64,000 nt of DNA from a virus (IMGVR_UViG_3300044623_000784:54085-118084), one strand, 5' to 3'. Shown: positions 12,386 to 49,678, counted from the stretch's first letter. The notes: generated by a model not told the origin, from the sequence alone. Numbers and translations: made by a program.

Positions 12386-12709
12386 TTAGTTATTTGCAAG
12401 ATTGCCAAGTAGTGATGCGTCAGAAAGTTTAATTCCTGATGCCTCTTCGACAATCTTGTATACTGTTGGAAGGTCTAGATTTTCTTCTAGTGCTTCCTTG
12501 TCTTCTGCCAATTCTGGCTTGTATTGCTTCATTGCTATTTGAACGCAGTCCATGAGTAAATCCATAGACTTTTCATTATCTTCTGCGACCTTTGCAATAT
12601 CTTCAAACTTCTTCATGAACGGACGTAGCAAAGAGATCTTAAGTGGTCTTACCTTGATCTTAGTGCCATCAATTAGTGTTACTGTCTTTTCTTCAGTGGC
12701 GGTTGCCAT
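12386..12709 (-). CDS. tail assembly chaperone (short form)
   Basis: 107 aa between tail tube and tape measure; GGAGG SD; paralogous to the N-terminal half of 12765-13445. Confidence 0.7.
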   Translation of the reverse strand: MATATEEKTVTLIDGTKIKVRPLKISLLRPFMKKFEDIAKVAEDNEKSMDLLMDCVQIAMKQYKPELAEDKEALEENLDLPTVYKIVEEASGIKLSDASLLGNLANN

Positions 12710-12764
12710 TTATTCCTCCTTATAAGGTTTAGTTAATTATACCATAGCGCAGGCTTATTTTTGA

Positions 12765-13445
12765 CTAATCGTAAGTCTCATAATCAAGTCCCATGCCTAT
12801 TCCAAAACCAGCCCTCTCAGCATTTGCGCCTTGTAAAGCCAGAATATCATTTCCATCTCCAGCAGCACCTTTACTAAATACTCTGGCCTTCATATCTTCC
12901 CATTCATTACCCCTGCCGTTGTTTTTATCTAAATCTACACCCTGCATGGCAGCAGAAAACTTTTTGTCACTATAGTCTAGTTCTCTTTTTATTTTTAAAG
13001 TTGCTGTTAACTCTTGCATAGACATTGATGATTCTAATTCGTCATAGTCTTTCCATATGCCAATTAAAAAAACTTCTGACTCTAGTTTTGCCAAATCTAA
13101 TGTATCCCAAGAAGATCCACTATCAACGGCTTGTTCTTTAACAGGCTCTTCTGACTTTTCATTAATTTTTATTCCTGCAGCAATATCAATAACATCGTAG
13201 ATAGTTGGCAAGTCTAGGCTGTCTTCTAAATCATCAATAGTTTTAATTGATGGGCAGTACTGCTGCATTGCAATAAGAGCGCAGTGGGCCAGGATAGATA
13301 TTGATTCGTCGTCAGTCTTTGCTTCCTTGATTGTTTCAAAGGTATCTAAAAACTCTCTTAGATATTTTATTTTTAGTGGGGCAGCAATAACAACCCTATC
13401 GTCTACTAGGTATATTTTTTTTGTGTCATATATTTTTGTTGCCAT
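12765..13445 (-). CDS. tail assembly chaperone (long, G-T fusion-like form)
   Basis: Likely start MATKIYD at 13445; N-half aligns with 12386-12709; C-terminal extension contains WKDYDELESSMSMQEL. Confidence 0.65.
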   Translation of the reverse strand: MATKIYDTKKIYLVDDRVVIAAPLKIKYLREFLDTFETIKEAKTDDESISILAHCALIAMQQYCPSIKTIDDLEDSLDLPTIYDVIDIAAGIKINEKSEEPVKEQAVDSGSSWDTLDLAKLESEVFLIGIWKDYDELESSMSMQELTATLKIKRELDYSDKKFSAAMQGVDLDKNNGRGNEWEDMKARVFSKGAAGDGNDILALQGANAERAGFGIGMGLDYETYD

Positions 13446-14767: not shown

Positions 14768-15441
14768 TATGCACCCAACCCTGCGTTAGCAATCCAGCGA
14801 TATCCAGTTGCTATGCCCTTAGATCTACCCAAATTTTTTCCTGCTGGCAGATCTTTTTTGTATACCTGTGGATTTTCAAGATATCTTGCTATCCCGCTTG
14901 TTCTTAAGAATGCTTGTGAAAAATATCTATTAAAGAACATATCAAAGGTTTTTTCAAAACCACCCTCAACTTGTGTTCCTCCAGGATTTAAAACTTCAAC
15001 TGGGCCACGAGTAAAGACTGTTTCTCCATTGTCATCAAATGCCAAAACTTGTGCAGCCCTTGGTCTAATTGTAACTGGAATACCATTTTCCATAATTCTG
15101 GCCTTGTCATAAAAAGGTGTTCGTGATCCATCCTTGATTGATCTTGACTGACTAAAAGATGATTTAAAAGATAGTCCTAAATTACTGACTGTGTAAGATA
15201 TGTCGTAAAGCCTTGCTTCTGGACTTCCAGTTAGATTCCACTCATATATGTGATGAAGCATCTCTGGGTTTACTCTTGCGTTAGAGTCTATAAATTCTTT
15301 CATTACTTCAACAGTTTCCATTCCCAGAGTTTTTAAAAATACTGTCTTGCCTTTGTGTACCCCATCTAAAAATCCAATAGAGTAGTTAACTATATTATTC
15401 ATATCTTTTTTAAACTGCTTTGAGTTAAATGTTGTTATCAT
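14767..15441 (-). CDS. putative neck / tail completion protein
   Basis: Synteny; HK97 gp10-like segment (IMENGIPVTIRPRAAQVLAF...VLNPG). Confidence 0.5.
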   Translation of the reverse strand: MITTFNSKQFKKDMNNIVNYSIGFLDGVHKGKTVFLKTLGMETVEVMKEFIDSNARVNPEMLHHIYEWNLTGSPEARLYDISYTVSNLGLSFKSSFSQSRSIKDGSRTPFYDKARIMENGIPVTIRPRAAQVLAFDDNGETVFTRGPVEVLNPGGTQVEGGFEKTFDMFFNRYFSQAFLRTSGIARYLENPQVYKKDLPAGKNLGRSKGIATGYRWIANAGLGA

Positions 15442-15887
15442 ACATCACCTGACTGATTCTCTGATCTTCTTATTACTAACTTGTAGGATTCTACAGTTCC
15501 AAACGGTCCAGTAAAAGGCTCAAAGGTTGCTATTTCAAAAAGTGTGCCTTTACCAGATCTAGGACCAGATGTCTCCATGTAGATAAGGTTACCTTCTTGA
15601 TCTTTAATGTCAGATATCAAGATATTGGTTAAAGCATTCTTACTATCAAGAGAAGAGATTCTGATATCAGACTTTGATCTTCCGACAAGAATTGAATTTT
15701 GTGTAATGTTGACATTTGGCTTTACTTCTTCTTTAAATGCAGAACCTCCAGTACTAAAACTACATGCAAAAACTCTATCTAAAACCCAGTGCTTTTTGAT
15801 TGAACCAAAGTCTCCTTGTTCTACTATTGGATGATATACAGATGCCTGCATTGGAAACATGAAGTCGGGGCTTTCGCAAACTGTCAT
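15438..15887 (-). CDS. putative head-closure / head-tail adaptor
   Basis: Synteny; translationally coupled; 149 aa. Confidence 0.5.
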   Translation of the reverse strand: MTVCESPDFMFPMQASVYHPIVEQGDFGSIKKHWVLDRVFACSFSTGGSAFKEEVKPNVNITQNSILVGRSKSDIRISSLDSKNALTNILISDIKDQEGNLIYMETSGPRSGKGTLFEIATFEPFTGPFGTVESYKLVIRRSENQSGDV

Positions 15888-27779: not shown

Positions 27780-28406
27780 TTAGTGAATCCAGTGTTGCGG
27801 AACCATAATCTTTTCACCACTCTTGACTAAGTGTGCTGTGTGGTGATAAGGTGGTGATGGAGGAAATACAATAATACTTCCTGCTTTTGGCTTAACAAAA
27901 AAATCATAAGCATTTTTATCTGCATTTGCAAAATCTGAATCTGGAGTTGGACCCTGGATAGGACCCTTTGGATCTCTAATTGTAAAAGAGATTTCTCCAC
28001 CCTCATAATTATCATTAAGATACATTACAAAAGAAACCTTAAGTCTTTCGTCTCCTTCTTGCTGATCAAAGTGTGCACCCATAAATGTTCCTGCTTGATA
28101 CTTCTTGATTGGGTATTGAGGAAATAGTTTTGGCTCTTCAGTTATACCGTGGGCTGCTGCGTAGTCTCTTGCTACATCATCAAATGCTTTTTGCAAAGTA
28201 TTATAGATATACTTATTTTGTTCATCGGCATCTGGAGTGAGAGCAATAGTCTTATCTGTTCCGTAGACATAGTGCTGTCCGCTACATGCCATCCACTCTC
28301 CCCATTCATCCTTGTTGTCATTTTCAATTGCCTCAACAAGTTTCTTTGGGTCTTCAATTACATTTGTGTAGTAGTAAACCTTTTCTTCAAGTATTTCTCT
28401 GTCCAT
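27780..28406 (-). CDS. 2OG-Fe(II) oxygenase, prolyl-4-hydroxylase-like
   Basis: HFD, YLNDNYEGGEISF, HTAH, K. Confidence 0.88.
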   Translation of the reverse strand: MDREILEEKVYYYTNVIEDPKKLVEAIENDNKDEWGEWMACSGQHYVYGTDKTIALTPDADEQNKYIYNTLQKAFDDVARDYAAAHGITEEPKLFPQYPIKKYQAGTFMGAHFDQQEGDERLKVSFVMYLNDNYEGGEISFTIRDPKGPIQGPTPDSDFANADKNAYDFFVKPKAGSIIVFPPSPPYHHTAHLVKSGEKIMVPQHWIH

Positions 28407-28417
28407 TTTATATCTCC

Positions 28418-29080
28418 TTAAAATTTATTCTCTTCATAAAAACCTGTAATTTTTATAAAGCCTACTGTAACATAACGAATTGGTCCTTCTGTTACAAAAC
28501 GAACTCCGTGTTCATATTCTTCATTTCCTGGGAAAAGAAGTAATGTTCCTGGCTTTGGCCTTAAGTCTGAATTTTCTTTATTCTTAAAGAATAGAGTTCC
28601 ATCCTTATAGTCATCGTTGATATACAGTATAGCAGCATATTTAATCGATGGGTCTGTGTGTTGGTCTGTGTGAGACTTTAACTCAACTCCAGCCTGCATT
28701 CTCTGGAGTGTTCCAAATCCAGCAAGTTCTAGAGATGGATCTGCTAAGGTTAGAAGTTTTCCAAGTCTTAACTGAAGAGTTCTGCTAATCTCTTTATCTG
28801 TGATGTCTAGGTTTTTATCTTCCCAACCTTGAGTTATTTCAAACTTACCTTCAGCAACTAGGTTGTCAACATCATCTCGTCCAAACTTTTCCATACAAAA
28901 TCTAGCAAGATTCTTTGTATACTCGATTGACCAGTCTTCATTGGGCGTTATCTTGATTATGTCTAGCAACGTATCTAACTCATTGTCTTTTAAAAAGTCG
29001 TTAATAAATAAAACGCCATCGTGAAATACTTCGGTGTTATATCCTGCATCATCAAACTCTTTTTTTAAAAAGACTTCCAT
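28418..29080 (-). CDS. 2OG-Fe(II) oxygenase, prolyl-4-hydroxylase-like
   Basis: HTD, YINDDYKDGTLFF, HGV, RY. Confidence 0.88.
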   Translation of the reverse strand: MEVFLKKEFDDAGYNTEVFHDGVLFINDFLKDNELDTLLDIIKITPNEDWSIEYTKNLARFCMEKFGRDDVDNLVAEGKFEITQGWEDKNLDITDKEISRTLQLRLGKLLTLADPSLELAGFGTLQRMQAGVELKSHTDQHTDPSIKYAAILYINDDYKDGTLFFKNKENSDLRPKPGTLLLFPGNEEYEHGVRFVTEGPIRYVTVGFIKITGFYEENKF

Positions 29081-29827
29081 TTATAGGTCCTCCACCTTAT
29101 ACTTATTTCCATTAGCATCTAACTTCCAACCTTCTTTTAAAAGTTCTTGCCATTCGGCTCTTTCGATTTCTTGCTTGGCTCTAGTCTCTTTCATTTCTGC
29201 AGCCCAAGCATCTCTTAGTTCTTGCGGATAGTCTGACTCTTCTCTGTCATCCCAGAATGATCCAATAGTATATCTCACTCCGCTTGTAATAAGCGAGACT
29301 TCATGCATGTTGTTAAATCCGCCGTCAAACACTGCAAGCATTCCAACCTTTGGCTGAATCTCAATATTCTGATCTGGAAACCTTAATAGTCCACCTTCAA
29401 AGTTATCGTTTAGATAAAGAAATCCTGCATACCTACTTCTTGTAAATGCCCCAGAGTTTCCTTTCTCGTCAGTATTATCTGAATGAATTCTTGCATATGC
29501 TCCAGGTTCCCACTTTTGTGTGTGGTAACCAATCTTAGAAATTATTTTTGGATCTAAATCATGCACTGAGGCAATTGCTTCTGGCATCTTGCTTTCAATA
29601 TCTGAAAAGATTGTTGGCTCTAATCCAGCATCCAGGACTTCCTGATCATTATCTTGTGGAAGAACAGAGGAATATGACTCATAGAATGATATAGGCATCC
29701 AAGAGATTTTTCCGTTGTTTGCCTGAGCGTCTAACGCTTCTATCATTTTTTGACAAGTTTCTTCGTCAATAAAGTTTTCATAAACTACAATATCTTTTGT
29801 AATTCTTTTCTTGTTTTCTAGGTTCAT
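29081..29827 (-). CDS. 2OG-Fe(II) oxygenase, prolyl-4-hydroxylase-like
   Basis: HSD, YLNDNFEGGLLRF, HEV, RYT. Confidence 0.88.
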   Translation of the reverse strand: MNLENKKRITKDIVVYENFIDEETCQKMIEALDAQANNGKISWMPISFYESYSSVLPQDNDQEVLDAGLEPTIFSDIESKMPEAIASVHDLDPKIISKIGYHTQKWEPGAYARIHSDNTDEKGNSGAFTRSRYAGFLYLNDNFEGGLLRFPDQNIEIQPKVGMLAVFDGGFNNMHEVSLITSGVRYTIGSFWDDREESDYPQELRDAWAAEMKETRAKQEIERAEWQELLKEGWKLDANGNKYKVEDL

Positions 29828-30684
29828 TTTATTCTCTTTTCTTTATCGGCATTCATTTTATTAGGATGGGCATCTCTAAACTTTTGCATAATATCTGGCT
29901 GCATTTCTTTCCAAACATCTTTTCCAAACTCAGCCTCTTTTTCAAACCACTCATCATCACCAATCTCATACTTCATCCAGTACATTCTGGAGATATACTT
30001 CTTTTCTCCTTTGGCTGGCATGACTCCATGAAGATATACTTGACCTTCTTTTGTTAGTATGTCTGGATGACCAGAAGGAAATATCAAGTAGTCTCCTGCT
30101 TCTGGCTTATACATATAGGCTTCTCCATCAACAATAAAGTCAATCTCTCCACCAGTATAATCATCATTAAAGTATGTTAAAGCAGTAATTCCAAACTTAT
30201 ATCCTGGGCTGACAATTGGCTCTCTAATAAAATCAGAGTGATAGGCCATTGCTAATGGGTCTTCTATATCTGTTTTATATCTTGCTATTGCTGGGCCATT
30301 AGTTGTCCACTGATTAAAAGATTCTCCTTCACGATTTACTAAGATTTTTTCTTTATCAAAATCAACATTATTCTTAAGTATGTAATCTTGTGTGGCTAAA
30401 TGAAAGTTTTCAAAGACTTCTAGCACTGCAACTTTTTGTGCTTCTTCTTTTTCTGTATTTGTTTTTATCTTCCTAATTTCTTCAATACTCATAGTGTGTG
30501 GATAATCTTTAAACAATGGATTCATGTACTCTCCGAAGTGAGACCACTTTGTCCAAGGACTAAAAATAGCATCTTCGCTTTCGTCTTTTAATATCTCAAG
30601 TGTCTTAGTGATATCCTTAAAAAGATTCTTGTATACAAATATCTTTGGATAAAGTTCAATATGCTCTAGGAGTTTTTCTGTCAT
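29824..30684 (-). CDS. 2OG-Fe(II) oxygenase, prolyl-4-hydroxylase-like
   Basis: HSD, YFNDDYTGGEIDF, HGV, KY; likely start MTEKLL overlapping the upstream stop (ATGA). Confidence 0.87.
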   Translation of the reverse strand: MTEKLLEHIELYPKIFVYKNLFKDITKTLEILKDESEDAIFSPWTKWSHFGEYMNPLFKDYPHTMSIEEIRKIKTNTEKEEAQKVAVLEVFENFHLATQDYILKNNVDFDKEKILVNREGESFNQWTTNGPAIARYKTDIEDPLAMAYHSDFIREPIVSPGYKFGITALTYFNDDYTGGEIDFIVDGEAYMYKPEAGDYLIFPSGHPDILTKEGQVYLHGVMPAKGEKKYISRMYWMKYEIGDDEWFEKEAEFGKDVWKEMQPDIMQKFRDAHPNKMNADKEKRIK

Positions 30685-42878: not shown

Positions 42879-42925
42879 AGGTAGTAACACCTACCAAGGT
42901 GTTATTGTTTTCTAAGGAGGAAACT

Positions 42926-43489
42926 ATGATTAAATTTATCGAAAGAAACAAAGAGATCATTAGCACACTCAGTATCGTAGCATTAGTAACTGTTTTGTCG
43001 AACGGAGCCAATGCTGATTCGGGTCTTGATACTAAAAACAACTTGAGCATAGAACAGGCTCAGACATCGGAAACCGCCTCGAAAGAGGTTTTTTTGGTTT
43101 CTAAAGCAAAAAAACTAGAGAGTTTTGAGAACAAGGTTTCTCTGACTGATTTAGAACTAAAGGAACTGCTTTCGCTAGTAGGATTCAAGGGTAAAGACCT
43201 TGTAGTTGCTTGGGCAGTTGCTAAAAAGGAGTCTAATGGGCGACCACTGGCTTTTAATGGCAACCACAAGACTGGTGATTCATCTTATGGAATGTTCCAA
43301 ATCAATATGATTGATACCCTTGGTCCTGATCGTAGGACTAAGTTTGATCTTGACTCTAATGCCGAACTCTTCAACCCCGTCAAGAATGCAGAGATTGCAT
43401 ACTACATGACAAATGGTGGAGAAGATTGGTCTTCTTGGAAGGGCATTACTCCAAAGACCAGAATGTGGATGAATAAATTTCCTAAATAA
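42926..43489 (+). CDS. exported lysozyme-like lytic transglycosylase (SLT-type)
   Basis: AGGAGG SD; signal peptide (LSIVALVTVLSNGANA); AVAKKESNG catalytic Glu; SYGMFQIN; DWSSW. Confidence 0.82.
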   Translation: MIKFIERNKEIISTLSIVALVTVLSNGANADSGLDTKNNLSIEQAQTSETASKEVFLVSKAKKLESFENKVSLTDLELKELLSLVGFKGKDLVVAWAVAKKESNGRPLAFNGNHKTGDSSYGMFQINMIDTLGPDRRTKFDLDSNAELFNPVKNAEIAYYMTNGGEDWSSWKGITPKTRMWMNKFPK

Positions 43490-43536: not shown

Positions 43537-44337
43537 TTATCTAAAATTAACTTCTGACTTAACCCCATCTGAGAAAGTGTAAGAAGGGAACCAGCCAAGA
43601 AGATCTCTGTTATCTATTTCTGATAGAACTGTTAGGTCTGGCAAATTTAAAACGGTATAAGTAATAGTAACACCATTAGCCTTATACTCGTTTACCAGAT
43701 CAATCATAGTAAACTGGTTTCCAGTAAAAATATCTGTAAGCAAAAAGTCGTTATCCTTAAGATACTCAATAGATAGTACATTGGCTTTTGCTATATCTAA
43801 AATATGGACATAGTCTCTTGTTGAAGAAACGCTATTAATGTTTATATTTGGATTTTTACTAATTATTGAAAATATGTTTCCACCTTGCTCATCCTTTATT
43901 TTGTCAGATTTTCCAACAATGTTAAAATATCTTAAAATAACAAGTTTTTTACATAAAATTTTTAATATTTTTTCTTCTAAAAGTTTTGATTTGGCATATG
44001 GGTTGTATGGATTATATATTGCTGCAGAGGATGCAAATATAACTGGTATATTTAAAACCTTAGAAACTAAAGCAACAGACAAGGTAGATCCTATATTGTT
44101 TAAATAATAAAGAATAGGGTTTTTTACAGACTCTGTAATTGATTTTTTAGCAGACAGGTGAATTATTGCTTTTGGTTTTTTTAAAGACAAACAAAATAGT
44201 TTAAATATGTTTCTTGTGTCATTGTTATTTTTTTTATCAAACTCTATAACGTTATATCCATTTTTTATTAAAAGTTCTTTTGTTGCTGATCCAACATAAC
44301 CAAATGATCCAGTCAAAACTACGCTAGCAGTTTTCAA
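43537..44337 (-). CDS. NAD-dependent nucleotide-sugar epimerase (GalE-like extended SDR)
   Basis: VLTGSFGYVGS, ASSAAIY, YAKSK, LRYFN and RDYVHILDIA. Confidence 0.85.
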   Translation of the reverse strand: MKTASVVLTGSFGYVGSATKELLIKNGYNVIEFDKKNNNDTRNIFKLFCLSLKKPKAIIHLSAKKSITESVKNPILYYLNNIGSTLSVALVSKVLNIPVIFASSAAIYNPYNPYAKSKLLEEKILKILCKKLVILRYFNIVGKSDKIKDEQGGNIFSIISKNPNININSVSSTRDYVHILDIAKANVLSIEYLKDNDFLLTDIFTGNQFTMIDLVNEYKANGVTITYTVLNLPDLTVLSEIDNRDLLGWFPSYTFSDGVKSEVNFR

Positions 44338-45241
44338 CTATTTCACCATTTATAAAATCAAGCCCAGCAAATGTTCCATATTCTAGAAGAGTTCTTTCAT
44401 TTCCAAGCAACATATCTCCAACTGTTCCTTCTGTTAAAGTTTTATAGATTAATTGTTTAGATACTAAATCTAAACGGTTAAATTCATCAGGGTAGTCTGT
44501 CCAAAGAATCTTTCTCTTATTTATTTCACCTGCAATGTTGTGATTATAGTAAAGATGATACATATACTGCTCATCAGGAACTAATATGTCATACCCATGC
44601 GTGTAGGCCCTTGCTGCCAACCATATTTCTTCTCCGTAAAATGCAATGTCTGTGTTGAAAGGTAAAAATCCTTTAACAGTAAATATTGATCCTCCAGATA
44701 CTGACTTTACAAATCTATTTCCATCGAGGATCGGCATTGCTGTTTGTTGTGGAATTCTTGTTAGCCTAAACTGATCTGGCTTTTCATGAAATGAGATATT
44801 AGATAAGTGGCCAGGTGGTAGAAAATCTTTTTCTACAAACTTAGCGGTTGCAGATGGATACCAGTAATTTGCTGGGTACATTGTAAGAAGTGGTTTGTGA
44901 ATTCCCTGAATTTGATAATTTAAAACCGAGTTTATGGCAACTTCGTCCCAACCACTAATAAATCTAGAATGTGAGTCGCATTGAAGATAATAATCTTCGC
45001 CATCATAAAATTGATGAGCAAGGGCTCTTCCGATTCCCAAACCAATATTTTCTGGAGCCTTGCTTTCAGCATGCTTAACATTAGGCAAATCAGGAACATT
45101 AATCTCTGATTCATCTACATAAACTGTGTGAACACCAAAATTAATTGTGTGGTTCCCAGATGACTGCTTTATTGCATCTAGAATTGTAGGGGTTACCTCT
45201 AAATCTCTATATGCTGCTATCTGAACAAATATGCTGGCCAT
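44324..45241 (-). CDS. GlcNAc transferase, Skp1 Gnt1 / GT60-like
   Basis: SIFVQIAAYRD, EDYYLQCDSHSRF...WD and FYGEEIWLAARAYTHGYDI...HLY are hallmarks of the GlcNAc (Gnt1-type) family. Confidence 0.82.
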   Translation of the reverse strand: MASIFVQIAAYRDLEVTPTILDAIKQSSGNHTINFGVHTVYVDESEINVPDLPNVKHAESKAPENIGLGIGRALAHQFYDGEDYYLQCDSHSRFISGWDEVAINSVLNYQIQGIHKPLLTMYPANYWYPSATAKFVEKDFLPPGHLSNISFHEKPDQFRLTRIPQQTAMPILDGNRFVKSVSGGSIFTVKGFLPFNTDIAFYGEEIWLAARAYTHGYDILVPDEQYMYHLYYNHNIAGEINKRKILWTDYPDEFNRLDLVSKQLIYKTLTEGTVGDMLLGNERTLLEYGTFAGLDFINGEIVENC

Positions 45242-46245
45242 TAGTCACCCCAAATCGCATGAACGCATGTTCTGCAGAAGTTTTCAAATGACTTAACTGT
45301 CATTAACTTATGCTCAATGCTCATCCATATATCGCTAATTGGCTTATCGTTTATATTTCCAAATACCGTTTCAAAATCGTAGTCATTACAACAAATAAAG
45401 GTGTCTCCATTAGCAGCAACGTGTAGCCATCCATTTGGTCTGCCACCTACTTCTCTTCCGTTACCACAACCAACTACTCTTTCCTTGCCTTTTTTCTCTT
45501 TGCTCTCAATAGCAGCCTTATTTGTAATAATTTGATGAGTATCTAAGTGACCATTTCTATCTACAAGGTATGGCATTTCGTATACTTGTAGTCCAGGAAA
45601 CTTTTCTCTCCAACCATTTGTCATTCTTGCAAGTAATCCAGTTTCAAGATCTATGTCCATTTCTGGAGCATTTTTTAACTGTTGAATCCAACCACCATAC
45701 TCTACAAGAGAATTTTTATTAATACCGTTTACTTGTATTGACATGGCTTTGCTTGTTACCATATCTGGCAACTGCTCTACCGCATATGTCACCTGCTCTA
45801 TTAATTTATCAAACATTTTTACGGGTTTTCCTGTTGCTTTTGCCCATTCTTCTGGATCTGATGCAGGAATATTAAAACAAATACCATGAACAACATCTTG
45901 ATATTCTCTAATAAGGTCAGTTCTTGCTTTAGTTAGTGGCGTTCCATTAGTTAACACAATGGTTCTTATCTTGTTTTTTCTTAAAACCTCTAGCATTTCT
46001 GGAAAGTACTTATAAAGAAGAACTTCGTTGTAGTGTGCCGTATATATAAAATCAAAATTATCAGAAACAAACGTGCCTTTACCTGCAACAAGTTGATTAA
46101 TAATGCTTTCAAAGGTTTCAATTGGCATATTTGTTCTTTGTGCCAAAGGATTTTCTGCATATCTTACTGGACAAAACCAACAGCCTACATTACAAAGACC
46201 ATTGGGGTCAATTTGTGCCATTGATATTTTGTATTGATATTTCAT
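45241..46245 (-). CDS. radical SAM protein with a SPASM/twitch domain
   Basis: CNVGCWFC; LTNG; C-terminal GC...NGDTFICCND...FGNI...IW...CRTC. Confidence 0.88.
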   Translation of the reverse strand: MKYQYKISMAQIDPNGLCNVGCWFCPVRYAENPLAQRTNMPIETFESIINQLVAGKGTFVSDNFDFIYTAHYNEVLLYKYFPEMLEVLRKNKIRTIVLTNGTPLTKARTDLIREYQDVVHGICFNIPASDPEEWAKATGKPVKMFDKLIEQVTYAVEQLPDMVTSKAMSIQVNGINKNSLVEYGGWIQQLKNAPEMDIDLETGLLARMTNGWREKFPGLQVYEMPYLVDRNGHLDTHQIITNKAAIESKEKKGKERVVGCGNGREVGGRPNGWLHVAANGDTFICCNDYDFETVFGNINDKPISDIWMSIEHKLMTVKSFENFCRTCVHAIWGD

Positions 46246-46246
46246 A

Positions 46247-46477
46247 TTACCACTTACCTATTGGACACTTGGCTGCTTCAAGTTTAGTTTTTATAGACAT
46301 AATGCATCCACACTTTTTGCATTGAGAGGTTAAAGAAATTAACTCTGGGCATGCTCTACATATTGACATTCTTGATGCTGCTAAATCATCGGCAGCATGT
46401 TTTGTCATTGGGTTTAGTAAGTCTAATGGAGTTACTCCATTTTTTTCTTTATATTTTTCCCATGCTGACTTTGACAT
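46247..46477 (-). CDS. small Cys-rich metal-binding protein (DUF6171-like)
   Basis: RMSICRACP...CKKCGC...CPIGKW. Confidence 0.7.
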   Translation of the reverse strand: MSKSAWEKYKEKNGVTPLDLLNPMTKHAADDLAASRMSICRACPELISLTSQCKKCGCIMSIKTKLEAAKCPIGKW

Positions 46478-46517
46478 TTGTTCTCCCTAAATAGTTGTTA
46501 TTCTATTATACACGATA

Positions 46518-46934
46518 TCACTCAGTGTATTGTGGCTGTGTTGGAGCCCAAGGAATTAAATCTGCCATGTCTCTATTCGTTATAGTAAATTTTTCTCCGT
46601 CAAAAGTGGCATTTGGAGATTGAACATATCTTCCATATGGGTAGTCTCTTAAATCAAGAACTAATGGATTGCTTAATAAGACGCTTCCAAAATATTCAGA
46701 AGTTTGTAATTCATTGATCATTGATCCATCTTTAATAAATCTAACTGTTATCCCGTCATGATTTGGATAACTTTGAGATACATCAATTACTGTATTGCTA
46801 GACATAAACATTTCTTTATATTCGTTCCATGTTGGTATATCATATATGCATTGTCCATCAATTACCCAAACTAACGGTACTCCATTTATACCGTCGTTTC
46901 CTCTAACAAACTGTATATCTATATCTGTTAACAA
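46518..46934 (-). CDS. hypothetical protein, possible fibre accessory
   Basis: GGAGG SD before TTG at 46934, overlapping the mucin-like gene stop; ends with NATFDGEKF. Confidence 0.6.
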   Translation of the reverse strand: MLTDIDIQFVRGNDGINGVPLVWVIDGQCIYDIPTWNEYKEMFMSSNTVIDVSQSYPNHDGITVRFIKDGSMINELQTSEYFGSVLLSNPLVLDLRDYPYGRYVQSPNATFDGEKFTITNRDMADLIPWAPTQPQYTE

Positions 46935-49678
46935 TTGTATCCTCCTCCGAAACACCTATCAAATGGTGGGTTTGAACAACTTGCTCCGCTTCCACAGCCA
47001 GTACTACATCCAGTAGAAGCACAACATCCAATAGATACGTCAAACGATGTACAGGTTACCCCAGATGTTGGTGCTGCAGTTGTGGTTGCTGCAGTTGTGG
47101 CTGCAGTTGTGGTTGCTGCAGTTGTGGCTGCGGTTGTAGTTGCTGCGGTCGTAGTAGTTGTTGGTGCTGCAGTTGTAGTTGCTGCAGTCGTTGTTGTGGT
47201 TGGTGCTGGGGTCGTAGTTGCTGCAGTCGTTGTTGTGGTTGGTGCTGGGGTCGTAGTTGCTGCAGTCGTTGTTGTGGTTGGTGCTGGGGTCGTAGTTGCT
47301 GCAGTCGTAGTTGTTGCAGGAGCAAAATATGGGAAGAATGGAGGTGCTGCAGTTGTAGTTGTACAATTTGGCAATGCTGGTGCAGACCCTTGTTGATAAG
47401 TAATATTGCTTACGCCATCATAATTTCCACTTATCCAATTAGCAAGTGATGATTGAGTTGTAAAGGAAGATCCTCCGTCTGATATTGCAACTCCGTTTGT
47501 ACAGAATGAAGCAAACCATCCAGTTGCTGCTGTCGTAGTTGTTGTAGTTGTTGGTGCTGGGGTCGTAGTAGTTGTTGGTGCTGGCGAAGTTGATGCTGCA
47601 GTCGTAGTTGCTGCTGTCGTTGTTGTTGTAGTTGTTGGTGCTGCAGTCGTAGTAGTTGTTGCAGTAGTTACTCCACAACTTGCTGGTGAAACAGAAGGTG
47701 TATTTGATGTTCCTGCTGCACAGTTCCATCCTGAACCAATTTCTCCCATAGATGTCATTTCATTAAATATCGCACTACACGTTGTTCCTGCTTCAAACAG
47801 TGGTCCGACAACTGTTCCAGGACTATAACCTGCGCTTACGCTGCCACAATATGTGTACCAGACTCCTGATGTTACTGGTGCTACGGTAGTTGTAGTTGTT
47901 GTTGCTGCGGTCGTGGTTGTAGTTGTTGCTGGTGTTGAAGATGTAGTTCCTGGTGCGACTGTTGTTGTAGTAGTTGTAGTAGGATTACATCCAGTTGGTG
48001 TTGTAGAAACCCCACCCTGTGTAGTATTTCCTATTCCTGGCTCATCTGCATCACATGCAGCGTTTAGACCTGTTACTGCAGCACTACTGTTAGCGTAAGT
48101 TCCACTGACTCCTGCTCCATTAGTACAGCAAGCATAATAAGTTGTTCCTGTTGGTGCTGGAGTAGTTGTAGTGGTTGTAGTTGTTCCAGCACATCCAGTT
48201 GGTAGTGCAGGAGCAGATCCTTGCTGGTAAGTAACATTACTTACATTTTCATAATTACCATTTATCCATGCTTCAAGTGCTCCAACGGATGTATACTGAG
48301 ATCCTCCGTCTGTCATTGCAATTCCATTAGAACAGAATGAGGCAAAATATCCACTTGTTGGTGCAGCAGTTGTTGTTGTAGTCGTGGTTGTACTTGTAGT
48401 GACACCTGAAGGAACAGTGTAACTTATTGTTGAAGAAGCAGATGCTCCTTGTTGATTGTCAGAAGCATAAACAGTTAATGTTAAAGTATAAGTTGTTCCC
48501 TTGTTTGCCATTCCAAGGTATGCGTCAGTATCTGAGTTAGCATTACTTGTATAAGTGCTTCCATTAGCAGTTGAAGGAGACGCAGTTATTTGATAAGATG
48601 ATGCATTTGAATAGTTAAATATTGTCCAGATAGCCTGTTGTGTTTGTGTATCGGTACATCCTCCTACGTCAGGGTTTTCACACTGAGCAGAGAAAGAACT
48701 AATTGTTGGTGTAATTACTGGCGCTACAGTCGTAGTTGTAGTTGTTGTTGCTGCAGTCGTGGTTGTAGTTGTTGCTGGTGTTGAAGATGTAGTTCCTGGT
48801 GCGACTGTTGTTGTAGTAGTTGTAGTGGCTGGTGCTGGTGTTGAAGATGTAGTTCCTGGCGCTGCTGTAGTAGTTGTAGTGGCTGGCGCTGCTGTAGTAG
48901 TTGTAGTGGTTGTCGGTGCTGCGGTTGTAGTAGTTGCTACAGCAACACCTTCATATATATCTCCATACAAAACCCAACTATCTGTTGCAACTTTTATTAA
49001 AGTTCCCTTGCTATATCTTCCATCTAAGAATAATTGTGAATTTTTACTATTAATAGTCACACCAGATGCTGGAACAAAAGTTGTTTTTTCTGAACCAAAT
49101 TCAATAAAATGATATTGATATCCAACTGGAATTGCAACTGAAGAATTTAGCGGGATAGTTAAATTCATTGGTGAAGATGTTGACAAAAGAATAGTCTTGC
49201 TAACATCTGCCAACTCTAATGTAAAACTAGAATTTTTTGTAATAACTGTTGAGGTATTTGAAATGCTTGGCTCAAGATCAAATTGGAATGTTCCTGAGTT
49301 CCAGTCAATTCCAACTCCTGCAAGCGTTGACTGATTTACGGTAGAGTTATCTATTCCAGAATCAACATATGCTTTTGTTGCAAGAAGGGCTGTGTTTGCT
49401 ATTCCGTGAACATTTATTGTGGCTGCATTGTGTGCTGCGATGGCTGCATCTCTATTTACTATTTCTGCTGCGTCGGCATCTACAAGGTTTTGAAGGTGTT
49501 TTGCTATTGAAGGGGATACAAGGTTTGATGGTGTTGTATTTGCGCCATCATAAGTATAGGATCCATAGTGATATAGTCTGAGCGCTGCCTGAATATCGGC
49601 TGCATCTCCAAGACCTGGGATTTTGGCATTAAATAGTCCAGTACCATTAACGGTATTGTCAATATTTTCTGCTGCCAC
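46928..49678 (-). CDS. fibre-anchored mucin-like Thr/Ala/Pro-rich protein with Cys-rich modules
   Basis: N-terminal fibre modules shared with 36696-38552 (VHGIANTALLATK, WVLYGDI); long T-runs; duplicated FASFC...QQGSAPALP module; Cys-rich C-terminus. Confidence 0.85.
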   Translation of the reverse strand: MAAENIDNTVNGTGLFNAKIPGLGDAADIQAALRLYHYGSYTYDGANTTPSNLVSPSIAKHLQNLVDADAAEIVNRDAAIAAHNAATINVHGIANTALLATKAYVDSGIDNSTVNQSTLAGVGIDWNSGTFQFDLEPSISNTSTVITKNSSFTLELADVSKTILLSTSSPMNLTIPLNSSVAIPVGYQYHFIEFGSEKTTFVPASGVTINSKNSQLFLDGRYSKGTLIKVATDSWVLYGDIYEGVAVATTTTAAPTTTTTTTAAPATTTTTAAPGTTSSTPAPATTTTTTTVAPGTTSSTPATTTTTTAATTTTTTTVAPVITPTISSFSAQCENPDVGGCTDTQTQQAIWTIFNYSNASSYQITASPSTANGSTYTSNANSDTDAYLGMANKGTTYTLTLTVYASDNQQGASASSTISYTVPSGVTTSTTTTTTTTAAPTSGYFASFCSNGIAMTDGGSQYTSVGALEAWINGNYENVSNVTYQQGSAPALPTGCAGTTTTTTTTPAPTGTTYYACCTNGAGVSGTYANSSAAVTGLNAACDADEPGIGNTTQGGVSTTPTGCNPTTTTTTTVAPGTTSSTPATTTTTTAATTTTTTVAPVTSGVWYTYCGSVSAGYSPGTVVGPLFEAGTTCSAIFNEMTSMGEIGSGWNCAAGTSNTPSVSPASCGVTTATTTTTAAPTTTTTTTAATTTAASTSPAPTTTTTPAPTTTTTTTAATGWFASFCTNGVAISDGGSSFTTQSSLANWISGNYDGVSNITYQQGSAPALPNCTTTTAAPPFFPYFAPATTTTAATTTPAPTTTTTAATTTPAPTTTTTAATTTPAPTTTTTAATTTAAPTTTTTAATTTAATTAATTTAATTAATTTAAPTSGVTCTSFDVSIGCCASTGCSTGCGSGASCSNPPFDRCFGGGYNC

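Follow-up and report, generated by a model that had tools for sequence, protein, structure and literature searches.

A Thr-rich fibre protein and a GT60-type glycosyltransferase encoded in one gene cluster of a lake-water phage: a candidate cassette for mucin-type O-glycosylation

Dense mucin-type O-glycosylation is textbook chemistry of the eukaryotic Golgi, and to our knowledge mucin- and extensin-like polymers have so far been regarded as products of the eukaryotic secretory pathway. In mycobacteriophages, Freeman et al. (Cell Host Microbe, 2023) reportedly found C-terminal extensions of capsid and tail-tube proteins to be modified by other transferase families than the one considered here. 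The present study concerns a six-gene cassette at positions 43537-49678 of a 64,000-nucleotide stretch of viral DNA (IMGVR_UViG_3300044623_000784:54085-118084, hereafter "the window"). In this cassette a fibre protein of 916 amino acids (aa) with long Thr-rich tracts is encoded together with a glycosyltransferase of the PF11397/GT60 type, a radical SAM enzyme, an epimerase and two small proteins. Our preferred reading, which we consider probable, is that the phage carries its own cytoplasmic cassette for mucin-type O-glycosylation of a virion appendage.

The closest described enzymes belong to CAZy family GT60, whose members are presented as relatives of family GT27 without the ricin-like domain (PMC8724618). 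The Trypanosoma cruzi enzyme adds alpha-linked N-acetylglucosamine (GlcNAc) to Thr of the acceptor KPPTTTTTTTTKPP in a Mn2+-dependent manner (PMC3769586). Gnt1, the namesake of Pfam family PF11397, puts GlcNAc on hydroxyproline (Hyp) of Skp1 (PMC6939170). Phage-encoded transferases glycosylate virion proteins of mycobacteriophages, as cited in two reports (PMC12582341, PMC10568470), and GT60 domains have been recorded for a giant algal virus and among the sequences of a freshwater virome.

The glycosyltransferase of the cassette matches PF11397 ("GlcNAc") with an E value of 1.7e-31 and 110.4 bits against a cut-off of 21. This hidden Markov model comparison bears out the family placement made in an earlier, sequence-only reading of the window, and the gene was also recovered by a six-frame search of the genome. 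The AlphaFold model of the 305-aa protein (predicted local distance difference test, pLDDT, 94.5) is a single domain with the features of a GT27-related GT-A catalytic domain devoid of the C-terminal ricin-like domain. When the model was compared with solved structures by VIA, the best predicted fold match was the mouse polypeptide N-acetylgalactosamine (GalNAc) transferase GalNAc-T1 (8v9q; Z 20.7, root-mean-square deviation 3.4, 263 residues aligned), followed by Toxoplasma gondii GalNAc-T3 (8uhv; Z 18.8); GT2-type and other GT-A enzymes reached Z values of 15.9 at most. The top 13 rows of a Foldseek search were all GT27 enzymes. Hence, the nearest folds are polypeptide transferases and not the non-protein GT2 enzymes, a grouping that would have counted against protein modification. 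In an alignment of 38 family members (29-83% identity), residues D13, T19, G67, D89, H91, W98, D99, F187, E205, G216 and H229 are invariant; D89-x-H91 together with H229 would form a site for a divalent metal, presumably Mn2+. We propose that the protein is an initiating polypeptide O-N-acetylhexosamine (HexNAc) transferase.

The sequence-only reading had called this enzyme "GT60-like" and "eukaryote-like". The first label stands, but the second is too narrow because PF11397 is abundant in metagenomes (2636 representative clusters at E<=0.001), some of them labelled as proteins of bacterial metagenome-assembled genomes. Sequence searches elsewhere returned little. A search of the Protein Data Bank (PDB) with the enzyme alone and with the 38-sequence profile gave no meaningful match, three NF-YB rows at E of about 1 being chance hits; NCBIfam holds no family for the glycosyltransferase, the stalk protein or either small protein; a cluster look-up of ten glycosyltransferase relatives returned almost no names; and a nucleotide search of the whole region against a phage collection found nothing. 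In the same collection, tblastn with the glycosyltransferase found only the Xanthomonas jumbo phage Xoo-sp13, at 26% identity. Three large metagenomic proteins, P0121 (1641 aa), P0293 (1988 aa) and P0305 (676 aa), contain up to four PF11397 repeats and also combine GT2 domains with a PF13640 oxygenase domain; P0293 has an AhpC/TSA domain as well.

The candidate acceptor is the 916-aa protein, 26.2% of which is Thr. Nine Thr-rich tracts in its stalk region add up to 317 residues, with 175 Thr and 34 Pro, and are separated by five Cys-bounded modules of about 52-54 aa, two of them clear duplicates, and by one module of 99 aa. Pro occurs as APT (11 times), TPA (8), APA (5) and APG (3), and an FFPYF motif lies at residues 781-785. 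Tandem-repeat periods in the stalk DNA are divisible by three in 19 of 19 rows. Because four Thr codons are used in the tracts (ACT 67, ACA 71, ACC 20, ACG 17), the tracts appear to be kept at the protein level and not by simple DNA slippage. The protein as a whole has no Pfam, PHROG or NCBIfam match. However, residues 77-241 resemble a neighbouring tail-fibre-like protein (BLASTP, E 6e-19 and 2e-14) which in turn matches 34 PHROG families, 17 of the 25 listed being in the tail category. The segmentation and this homology agree with the architecture described in the sequence-only reading: a fibre-type N-terminus, long Thr/Ala/Pro tracts and Cys-containing modules. Both the position of the gene and the homology of its N-terminal domain suggest that the product is a tail-fibre-like appendage of the virion. 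The stalk gene is also the least conserved gene of the neighbourhood in relatives (42% identity in one locus, L003, against 64-95% for the flanking genes), as expected of a host-facing part.

The association of the two proteins was examined in a viral collection scanned with the glycosyltransferase (25 loci) and with the radical SAM enzyme (55 loci). Twelve same-contig duplicates (L028-L034, L036, L037, L040, L041 and L044), the two entries of the phage's own genome (L001 and L002) and a 31% partial match to the radical SAM enzyme (L078) were dropped before counting, and open reading frames (ORFs) that cross the repeats in alternative frames and are rich in Q/L/H, N/Y/S or S/H/R were removed as artefacts. 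Of the 63 distinct related loci, 59 have a glycosyltransferase homologue (37-93% identity). A low-complexity stalk protein is encoded just upstream in 47 of the 48 glycosyltransferase loci that have at least 1.5 kb before the cassette, which confirms the linkage to a Thr-containing stalk expected from the single window; the exception, L056, shows only 2 kb, occupied by two oxygenase genes. Every tract linked to the glycosyltransferase contains Thr, with a minimum of 10%.

The linkage is kept across very different scaffolds. Some stalks are fused fibres of 700-1000 aa; others are split into a 194-aa fibre domain, encoded by a gene of its own, and a separate stalk protein. In stand-alone stalks of 118-202 aa, a conserved peptide of about 18 residues at the N-terminus leads into one long tract, and a Cys tip closes the protein. 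One scaffold of 921 aa has an fn3 domain and finishes with a Thr run and a tip; in another, the stalk ends in a C-terminal domain of non-Cys type. At least four Cys are found within the last 45 aa in 24 of 28 loci with Thr-rich stalks and in 16 of 16 with (TP)n stalks.

Some details of these scaffolds deserve mention. In the stand-alone stalks of L006, L007, L013, L025, L054, L063, L068 and L070, the peptide preceding the tract is of the type MSPL-R-PSGIGV-L; it may attach the stalk to the fibre, or could be recognised by the small Cys protein described below. In L016 (3254-6247), L019, L021 and L022 the stalk ends, without a Cys tip, in a segment of about 160 residues running from an initial Cys to a final HNK. 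The L016-type end gives a weak Hint_2 match (19 bits, cut-off 28.4) after a PPSFPFFPPYFP motif, and may be self-processing. In L077 (3468-5999) a C-terminal domain free of Cys comes after the Thr tract and, by eye only, has the look of a PASTA-type wall-binding domain.

Linkage admits another explanation, namely that the glycosyltransferase and the epimerase are auxiliary genes altering a host structure (a cell-wall glycopolymer, a lipid or another protein), and that the fibre neighbourhood is merely an inherited gene order. Modification of host surface polymers is a common function of phage glycosyltransferases, and the PHROG label of the nearest glycosyltransferase family is "moron, auxiliary metabolic gene and host takeover". 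Moreover, gene order is conserved in all the loci compared, all of which are relatives; since several are near-identical (L014/L015, L050/L051, L060/L062/L065/L072), the counts overstate the number of independent events, and conserved order alone could explain part of the linkage. Against this explanation, the glycosyltransferase stays beside Thr-containing stalks in all the scaffolds listed above and down to 37% identity, its best fold matches are polypeptide transferases, and it has no membrane segment. In addition, it is found fused to the 76-aa module discussed below, itself also fused to protein-hydroxylase-like enzymes, and the enzyme set varies with stalk composition. We therefore regard modification of a host structure as very improbable, and glycosylation of the stalk as the better account.

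The constant partner of the glycosyltransferase cassette is a 76-aa Cys protein, whose gene is present in 48 of the 50 glycosyltransferase loci with a stalk and also in loci with Pro/Phe stalks. Its score against PF19668 (DUF6171), 23.2 bits, is below the cut-off of 27, and it matches phrog_13558 with E 7.5e-17; as many of its homologues and fusion proteins carry a precomputed PF19668 match, we treat it as a divergent DUF6171 member. C53, C56, C58 and C71 are invariant, C40 and C43 nearly so, and the C-terminus bears an invariant CP-GKW. Among the best 120 longer proteins containing this module, a profile search found PF11397 in 25 and PF13640 in 2. Both halves were confirmed by BLASTP in nine of nine glycosyltransferase fusions checked (the module being N-terminal in six and C-terminal in three), in two of two fusions with oxygenase-like enzymes and in two of two with GT2-like enzymes, a type that replaces the radical SAM enzyme in L022. 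Fusions in both orders and with three kinds of stalk-modifying enzyme are most simply explained if the module is an accessory shared by these enzymes and acting in physical contact with them, which we consider probable; it might dock them on their substrate or serve as a structural metal site. A predicted complex of the glycosyltransferase with the 76-aa protein (score 0.01, mark 0.32) reads neither for nor against contact, and atlas look-ups of the 76-aa protein and of the radical SAM enzyme returned mainly their own viral clusters.

The 145-aa protein encoded next to the stalk gene has no family match in Pfam, PHROG or NCBIfam. A homologue, or a protein resembling p143 (encoded behind a Pro/Phe-rich gene elsewhere in the window), occupies the same position in 27 of the 50 loci. 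This position is that of a fibre helper or chaperone, a role the protein may have. The idea that it is a paralogue of p143 was dropped, as similarity between the two is not detectable (E 3.2).

When stalk composition was compared with enzyme content, four classes of locus could be distinguished, oxygenases being counted within the sequenced extent of each locus. Those found near cassettes are members of PF13640. (i) Thr-rich tracts (about 52% T, 25% A and 10% P) occur in 28 loci, 26 of which have no such oxygenase. (ii) In the 16 loci with (TP)n tracts (about 40% P and 36% T), exactly one oxygenase gene is present in every case, located between the 76-aa gene and the radical SAM-glycosyltransferase pair. 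(iii) Two loci with repeats of the unit TPPPIIA have three oxygenases each. (iv) Two loci with Pro/Phe tracts (about 50% F and 40% P), L042 and L043, have seven and eight oxygenases; genes for a 145-aa-like protein, the 76-aa protein and the radical SAM enzyme lie between the Pro/Phe protein and the oxygenase array.

The genome under study fits the same pattern. Besides the Thr-rich stalk it encodes a low-complexity Pro/Phe protein with a Cys tip of its own, behind which lie the genes for p143 and for a PF13640 oxygenase array (Table 1). Given the arrangement in L042 and L043, its two cassettes look like variants of one system. Since the Pro/Phe protein precedes the oxygenase array and the Thr-rich protein precedes the glycosyltransferase, the number of oxygenases follows the Pro of the tract and the glycosyltransferase follows its Thr.

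These data bear on the nature of the acceptor. If the system were of the Skp1 type, phage oxygenases would produce Hyp in AP/TP motifs, and perhaps also in the Pro/Phe protein, and the GT60-type enzyme would add GlcNAc to that Hyp, giving an extensin- or arabinogalactan-like stalk. A number of observations lean this way and count against Thr as the acceptor. Gnt1 itself is specific for Hyp (PMC6939170) and acts after PhyA. The genome has eight PF13640 matches, six of them in the array, and in all 16 (TP)n cassettes the single oxygenase gene sits right beside the radical SAM-glycosyltransferase pair. Single proteins fuse PF13640 to PF11397 in 3 of 16 long relatives (P0121, P0293 and P0305; confirmed by BLASTP in P0121 and P0305). 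Some Pro is present in every glycosyltransferase-linked tract, including the 34 residues in the tracts of the window.

Other observations speak against a Skp1-type pathway. In five of five long contigs with Thr-rich cassettes (69, 63, 40, 97 and 49% complete by CheckV), a family search that finds eight matches in the window's genome found no PF13640 at all; four of the five are incomplete, which weakens the point, but at least one nearly complete phage has the stalk, the radical SAM enzyme and the glycosyltransferase without a hydroxylase. The lack of an oxygenase in most Thr-rich loci agrees with this, and in L046 and L077 Pro is not among the four commonest tract residues. In the genome under study, some 10 kb separate the glycosyltransferase gene from the oxygenase array, which follows the gene of the Pro/Phe protein. 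Neither Pro/Phe locus shows a glycosyltransferase in spite of its seven or eight oxygenases, although both contigs end soon after the array and the gene could lie beyond. We thus consider Thr the probable acceptor in this phage and Hyp an unlikely one, and a pathway of the Skp1 type as a whole is to be given only slightly more credit. In (TP)n phages both residues may be used.

The radical SAM enzyme scores 39 bits against PF04055 (cut-off 29.5) and 35.8 bits against the SPASM family PF13186 (cut-off 21.5). The Cys residues of its CxxxCxxC cluster motif (C18, C22 and C25) are invariant. A SPASM domain is defined by a seven-Cys motif for two auxiliary clusters; here only five C-terminal Cys are invariant (C260, C285, C286, C324 and C327), so that a Twitch-like or partial SPASM domain fits better. 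BtrN is the best PDB match both by sequence (E 3.5e-6) and, with the model (pLDDT 85.1), by Foldseek (1.5e-10, followed by DesII at 1.6e-9). In VIA, BtrN (Z 14.2) and DesII tie with SkfB (15.7), SuiB (15.3), CteB (14.0), anSME and ChlB (SkfB, SuiB and ChlB spanning 15.3-15.7). Hence, the fold search does not separate sugar from peptide substrates. NCBIfam gives only far sub-threshold matches, such as spiro-SPASM with 49.6 bits against a cut-off of 250.

Among the 50 glycosyltransferase loci with a stalk, 43 have the radical SAM enzyme and 7 do not. Its gene directly precedes that of the glycosyltransferase in 49 of the 50 loci having both. In L042 and L043 the enzyme accompanies Pro/Phe stalks with no adjacent glycosyltransferase. 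Both that occurrence and the absence from seven loci disfavour a role tied to the sugar only. Our best guess is accessory tailoring of a hydroxyl-bearing group (sugar, Thr or Hyp) by an enzyme of the BtrN/anSME type.

The resemblance to peptide maturases suggests a further alternative, in which the cassette would mature the stalk tip in the manner of ribosomally synthesized and post-translationally modified peptides: the radical SAM enzyme would introduce thioether cross-links, the glycosyltransferase would attach sugars to tip residues (Cys, Ser or Thr) like the S-glycosyltransferases of glycocins, and the Thr tracts would be flexible linkers. The frequency of Cys-rich tips in Thr-rich and (TP)n loci is in keeping with this idea, as are the VIA matches to SkfB, SuiB and CteB, which stand beside those to sugar-acting enzymes, and the coexistence of the radical SAM enzyme, the 76-aa protein and a Cys-tipped Pro/Phe stalk without a glycosyltransferase in L042 and L043. 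SunS is also among the fold matches of the glycosyltransferase, but weakly (Z 9.7), and GT27 is far nearer (Z 20.7). Furthermore, the radical SAM enzyme persists where the Cys tip is missing: L077 combines a Thr tract and the radical SAM-glycosyltransferase pair without the Cys tip, the 76-aa gene or the 145-aa gene, and L071 has poly-Thr linkers and the radical SAM enzyme without the Cys tip. This disfavours cross-linking of the tip, and so do the loci without the enzyme and the five, not seven, C-terminal Cys. In model alignments, no N-terminal peptide-recognition (RRE) domain was found; residues 1-2 align to residues 100, 96 and 88 of SkfB, SuiB and CteB, so that the protein begins at the radical SAM core. 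Tip maturation of this kind is therefore improbable, and decoration of the stalk remains our preferred reading.

The epimerase matches PF01370 with 79.9 bits (cut-off 20.9), and falls far below the cut-off of the GalE equivalog TIGR01179 (99.7 bits against 262.3). With 266 aa it is also shorter than GalE, which has about 330-340. Among solved structures, UDP-glucose 4-epimerases are its best relatives (E 6.5e-20), and both GxxGxxG (GSFGYVG) and YxxxK (YAKSK) motifs are present in the translation. We propose that it supplies an epimer of UDP-hexose or UDP-HexNAc. An epimerase gene is present in 31 of the 50 loci; like the radical SAM enzyme, the epimerase is accessory to the cassette.

Relatives show further sugar genes, added or exchanged, at this position. 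DUF7164 is a second transferase family that joins the cassette, and is fused to the glycosyltransferase in L014 and L015; it was not found in the window's own genome, a weak absence as control genomes gave no signal either. A GT2-like enzyme with a different epimerase, and a protein with HAD and nucleotidyltransferase parts, are found at the same place in further loci. Altogether, the region looks like a variable toolkit for glycan tailoring. In L011, the interval from the cassette to the lysozyme gene contains two sulfotransferase genes (12465-13181 and 15159-15629; PF03567, E 2.3e-9, and PF13469, E 1.5e-8), which adjoin those of two Gly-rich fibre-like proteins and hint at sulfated glycans or proteins. 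In the window, a soluble glycosyltransferase of 223 aa with a PF04488 DXD sugar-binding region is encoded about 3 kb upstream of the stalk gene and could extend the glycan. No homologue of it was found by local BLAST in related loci that cover the position (e.g. L019 and L021).

The viral record of which the window is the final part is 118 kb long and complete according to CheckV; among its products is a WhiB protein, consistent with an actinobacterial host. Between 0.98 and 0.99 of the sampled sequence words are present in 21 DNA runs from lake water (the source sample may be among them). Three RNA-library runs contain 0.05-0.07 of the words, as short contig pieces, mostly 90-95% alike, that cover parts of the epimerase and stalk genes only; these pieces derive from relatives and are no sign of transcription, and gaps in the cover carry no meaning. 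Within the structural module, the cassette belongs to the section for tail fibres. It is preceded by genes for a collagen-like fibre protein and for small structural proteins; downstream, directly after the cassette, is an SLT-type lysozyme gene on the opposite strand (46-95% identity in the relatives that have it), followed by more fibre proteins. All six genes listed in the sequence-only reading are present on the minus strand (Table 1), and they abut or overlap. The stalk gene and the 145-aa gene overlap by 28 nt, gaps of 40 nt and 1 nt separate the 76-aa gene from the 145-aa and radical SAM genes respectively, the radical SAM and glycosyltransferase genes have one base in common, and the glycosyltransferase and epimerase genes overlap by 14 nt. 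No signal peptide or membrane segment is predicted in any of the six proteins, and therefore any modification would occur in the host cytoplasm.

Table 1. Cassette genes, parts of the stalk protein and other features of the window mentioned in the text.
Feature	Position	Strand	Basis
Stalk fibre gene, 916 aa: fibre-type N-terminal domain, Thr/Ala/Pro tracts with Cys-bounded modules, Cys-rich tip	46928-49678	(-)	ORF
N-terminal fibre domain of stalk protein, residues 1-243	48950-49678	(-)	BLASTP to neighbouring fibre-like protein
Stalk region, residues 244-875; proposed acceptor of the glycosyltransferase	47054-48949	(-)	Composition and segmentation
C-terminal tip of stalk protein, 41 aa, 8 Cys	46931-47053	(-)	Composition and segmentation
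Protein without family match, 145 aa	46518-46955	(-)	ORF
Six-Cys protein, DUF6171-like, 76 aa	46247-46477	(-)	ORF, phrog_13558
Radical SAM enzyme, Twitch-like/partial SPASM C-terminal domain, 334 aa	45241-46245	(-)	PF04055, PF13186
GT-A glycosyltransferase, PF11397/CAZy GT60 type, 305 aa	44324-45241	(-)	PF11397, fold
Short GalE-like short-chain dehydrogenase/reductase (SDR) 4-epimerase, 266 aa	43537-44337	(-)	PF01370
SLT_3 lysozyme-like gene	42899-43489	(+)	E 4.8e-16
Tail-fibre-like protein	36696-38552		BLASTP, PHROG
Pro/Phe low-complexity protein with Cys tip	35289-36662	(-)	
Six PF13640 oxygenases in array	27780-34707		PF13640
Pro/Phe protein, p143 and oxygenase array	27780-36662	(-)	
Soluble glycosyltransferase, 223 aa	52527-53198	(-)	PF04488, E 1.9e-12

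A tentative sequence of events can be drawn for the reading we prefer. The N-terminal domain would join the stalk protein to the tail-fibre apparatus. In the cytoplasm, the soluble glycosyltransferase, using a UDP-HexNAc donor and a divalent metal bound by the DxH...H residues, would attach the initial sugar to the hydroxyl groups of tract Thr; models for this step are the polypeptide GlcNAc-transferases of T. cruzi and Dictyostelium and the animal GalNAc-transferases that act on mucin domains. The GalE-like epimerase would set the donor epimer (UDP-GlcNAc/UDP-GalNAc or UDP-Glc/UDP-Gal). The 76-aa module would be in physical contact with the modifying enzymes and perhaps dock them on the stalk, and the radical SAM enzyme, with its BtrN/anSME build and no peptide-recognition domain, might tailor sugars or side chains that bear hydroxyls. 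A stalk of "bottle-brush" form would result, stiff, hydrated, resistant to proteases and bearing binding modules. The O-glycosylated mucin-like appendage imagined from the window alone has gained from the GT60-type enzyme, the polypeptide-transferase fold and the repeated linkage to Thr stalks, and stays a proposal as to the appendage itself and to the shielding, anti-adsorption or receptor mimicry suggested for it.

A wider generalization is attractive, and we advance it as a speculation with rather less than even chances. Freshwater actinophages might share a modular system of stalk decoration in which stalk composition dictates the enzyme set: GT60-type enzymes would go with Thr, the number of oxygenases would scale with Pro, and (TP)n would call for both kinds. 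The six-Cys module would recruit the enzymes, and the radical SAM enzyme and swappable sugar genes would finish the work, giving mucin- or extensin-like bottle-brush glycoproteins in the bacterial cytoplasm. Peptides and recombinant enzymes would allow a direct test of the rule that relates stalk composition to enzyme set. If the proposal is true, an abundant group of lake phages performs mucin-type O-glycosylation inside bacteria with a minimal soluble enzyme, and a compact, secretion-independent toolkit for mucin-like glycoproteins exists. The proposal would also have implications for where GT60/GT27 enzymes come from and how they are linked to prolyl hydroxylases, and it would account for long, protease-resistant, hydrated appendages in phages that infect very small planktonic actinobacteria. 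Swappable sugar genes and sulfotransferases would then add variation to the virion surface that sequence-based host-range prediction ignores.

Glycosylation of phage virions is already known from mycobacteriophages. In the literature searched we found no description of a GT60-type enzyme tied to poly-Thr fibre stalks of phages, of a composition-matched hydroxylase rule or of a shared Cys module, and PF11397 turned up only in work on a brown alga. The publications on freshwater actinophages that were searched make no mention of glycosyltransferase, glycosylation, hydroxylase or radical SAM in their main texts.

How the phage system compares with those described can be summarized as follows. Like the GT60 enzymes of protists (TcOGNT-2 of T. 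cruzi, Gnt2 of Dictyostelium), the phage glycosyltransferase belongs to PF11397, consists of a single GT-A domain without the ricin-like lectin domain and has a DxH motif; its likely acceptor is a Thr run flanked by Pro, as in the T. cruzi peptide (PMC3769586). However, according to the same report, the protist enzymes are Golgi membrane proteins that act on secreted mucins, while the phage enzyme is soluble, cytoplasmic and accompanied by a DUF6171-like module, a radical SAM enzyme and an epimerase. With the Gnt1/PhyA pathway of Dictyostelium and Toxoplasma it shares a soluble cytoplasmic enzyme of GT60 type and, in its own genome and in (TP)n relatives, PF13640 oxygenases of the prolyl-hydroxylase type, GT60-oxygenase fusions being also found. 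Skp1 is modified at one Pro, whereas the candidate substrate of the phage offers hundreds of repeat residues, and the five long Thr-rich contigs without PF13640 suggest that hydroxylation may not be a general prerequisite for the phage enzyme.

The GT27 GalNAc-transferases of animals and Toxoplasma are the closest in predicted fold (255-263 residues aligned in the two best matches). The order of motifs, DxH ... E-E ... H, is the same, with the Mn-site residues probably equivalent, and the adjacent phage 4-epimerase could supply UDP-GalNAc. In contrast, the phage enzyme has only 11-14% identity to them, has neither lectin domain nor membrane anchor, and is invisible to sequence searches of the PDB. 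The radical SAM enzyme resembles BtrN and DesII in the searches described above and, like BtrN and anSME, has no N-terminal recognition domain; its VIA scores tie with those of peptide maturases and its NCBIfam matches lie far below cut-off. Finally, the cassette would share with mycobacteriophage virion glycosylation the use of a phage-encoded transferase for a virion protein in an actinobacterial phage. The difference is that the target would be a long mucin-like fibre stalk, served by a GT60-type enzyme, a radical SAM enzyme and a Cys module.

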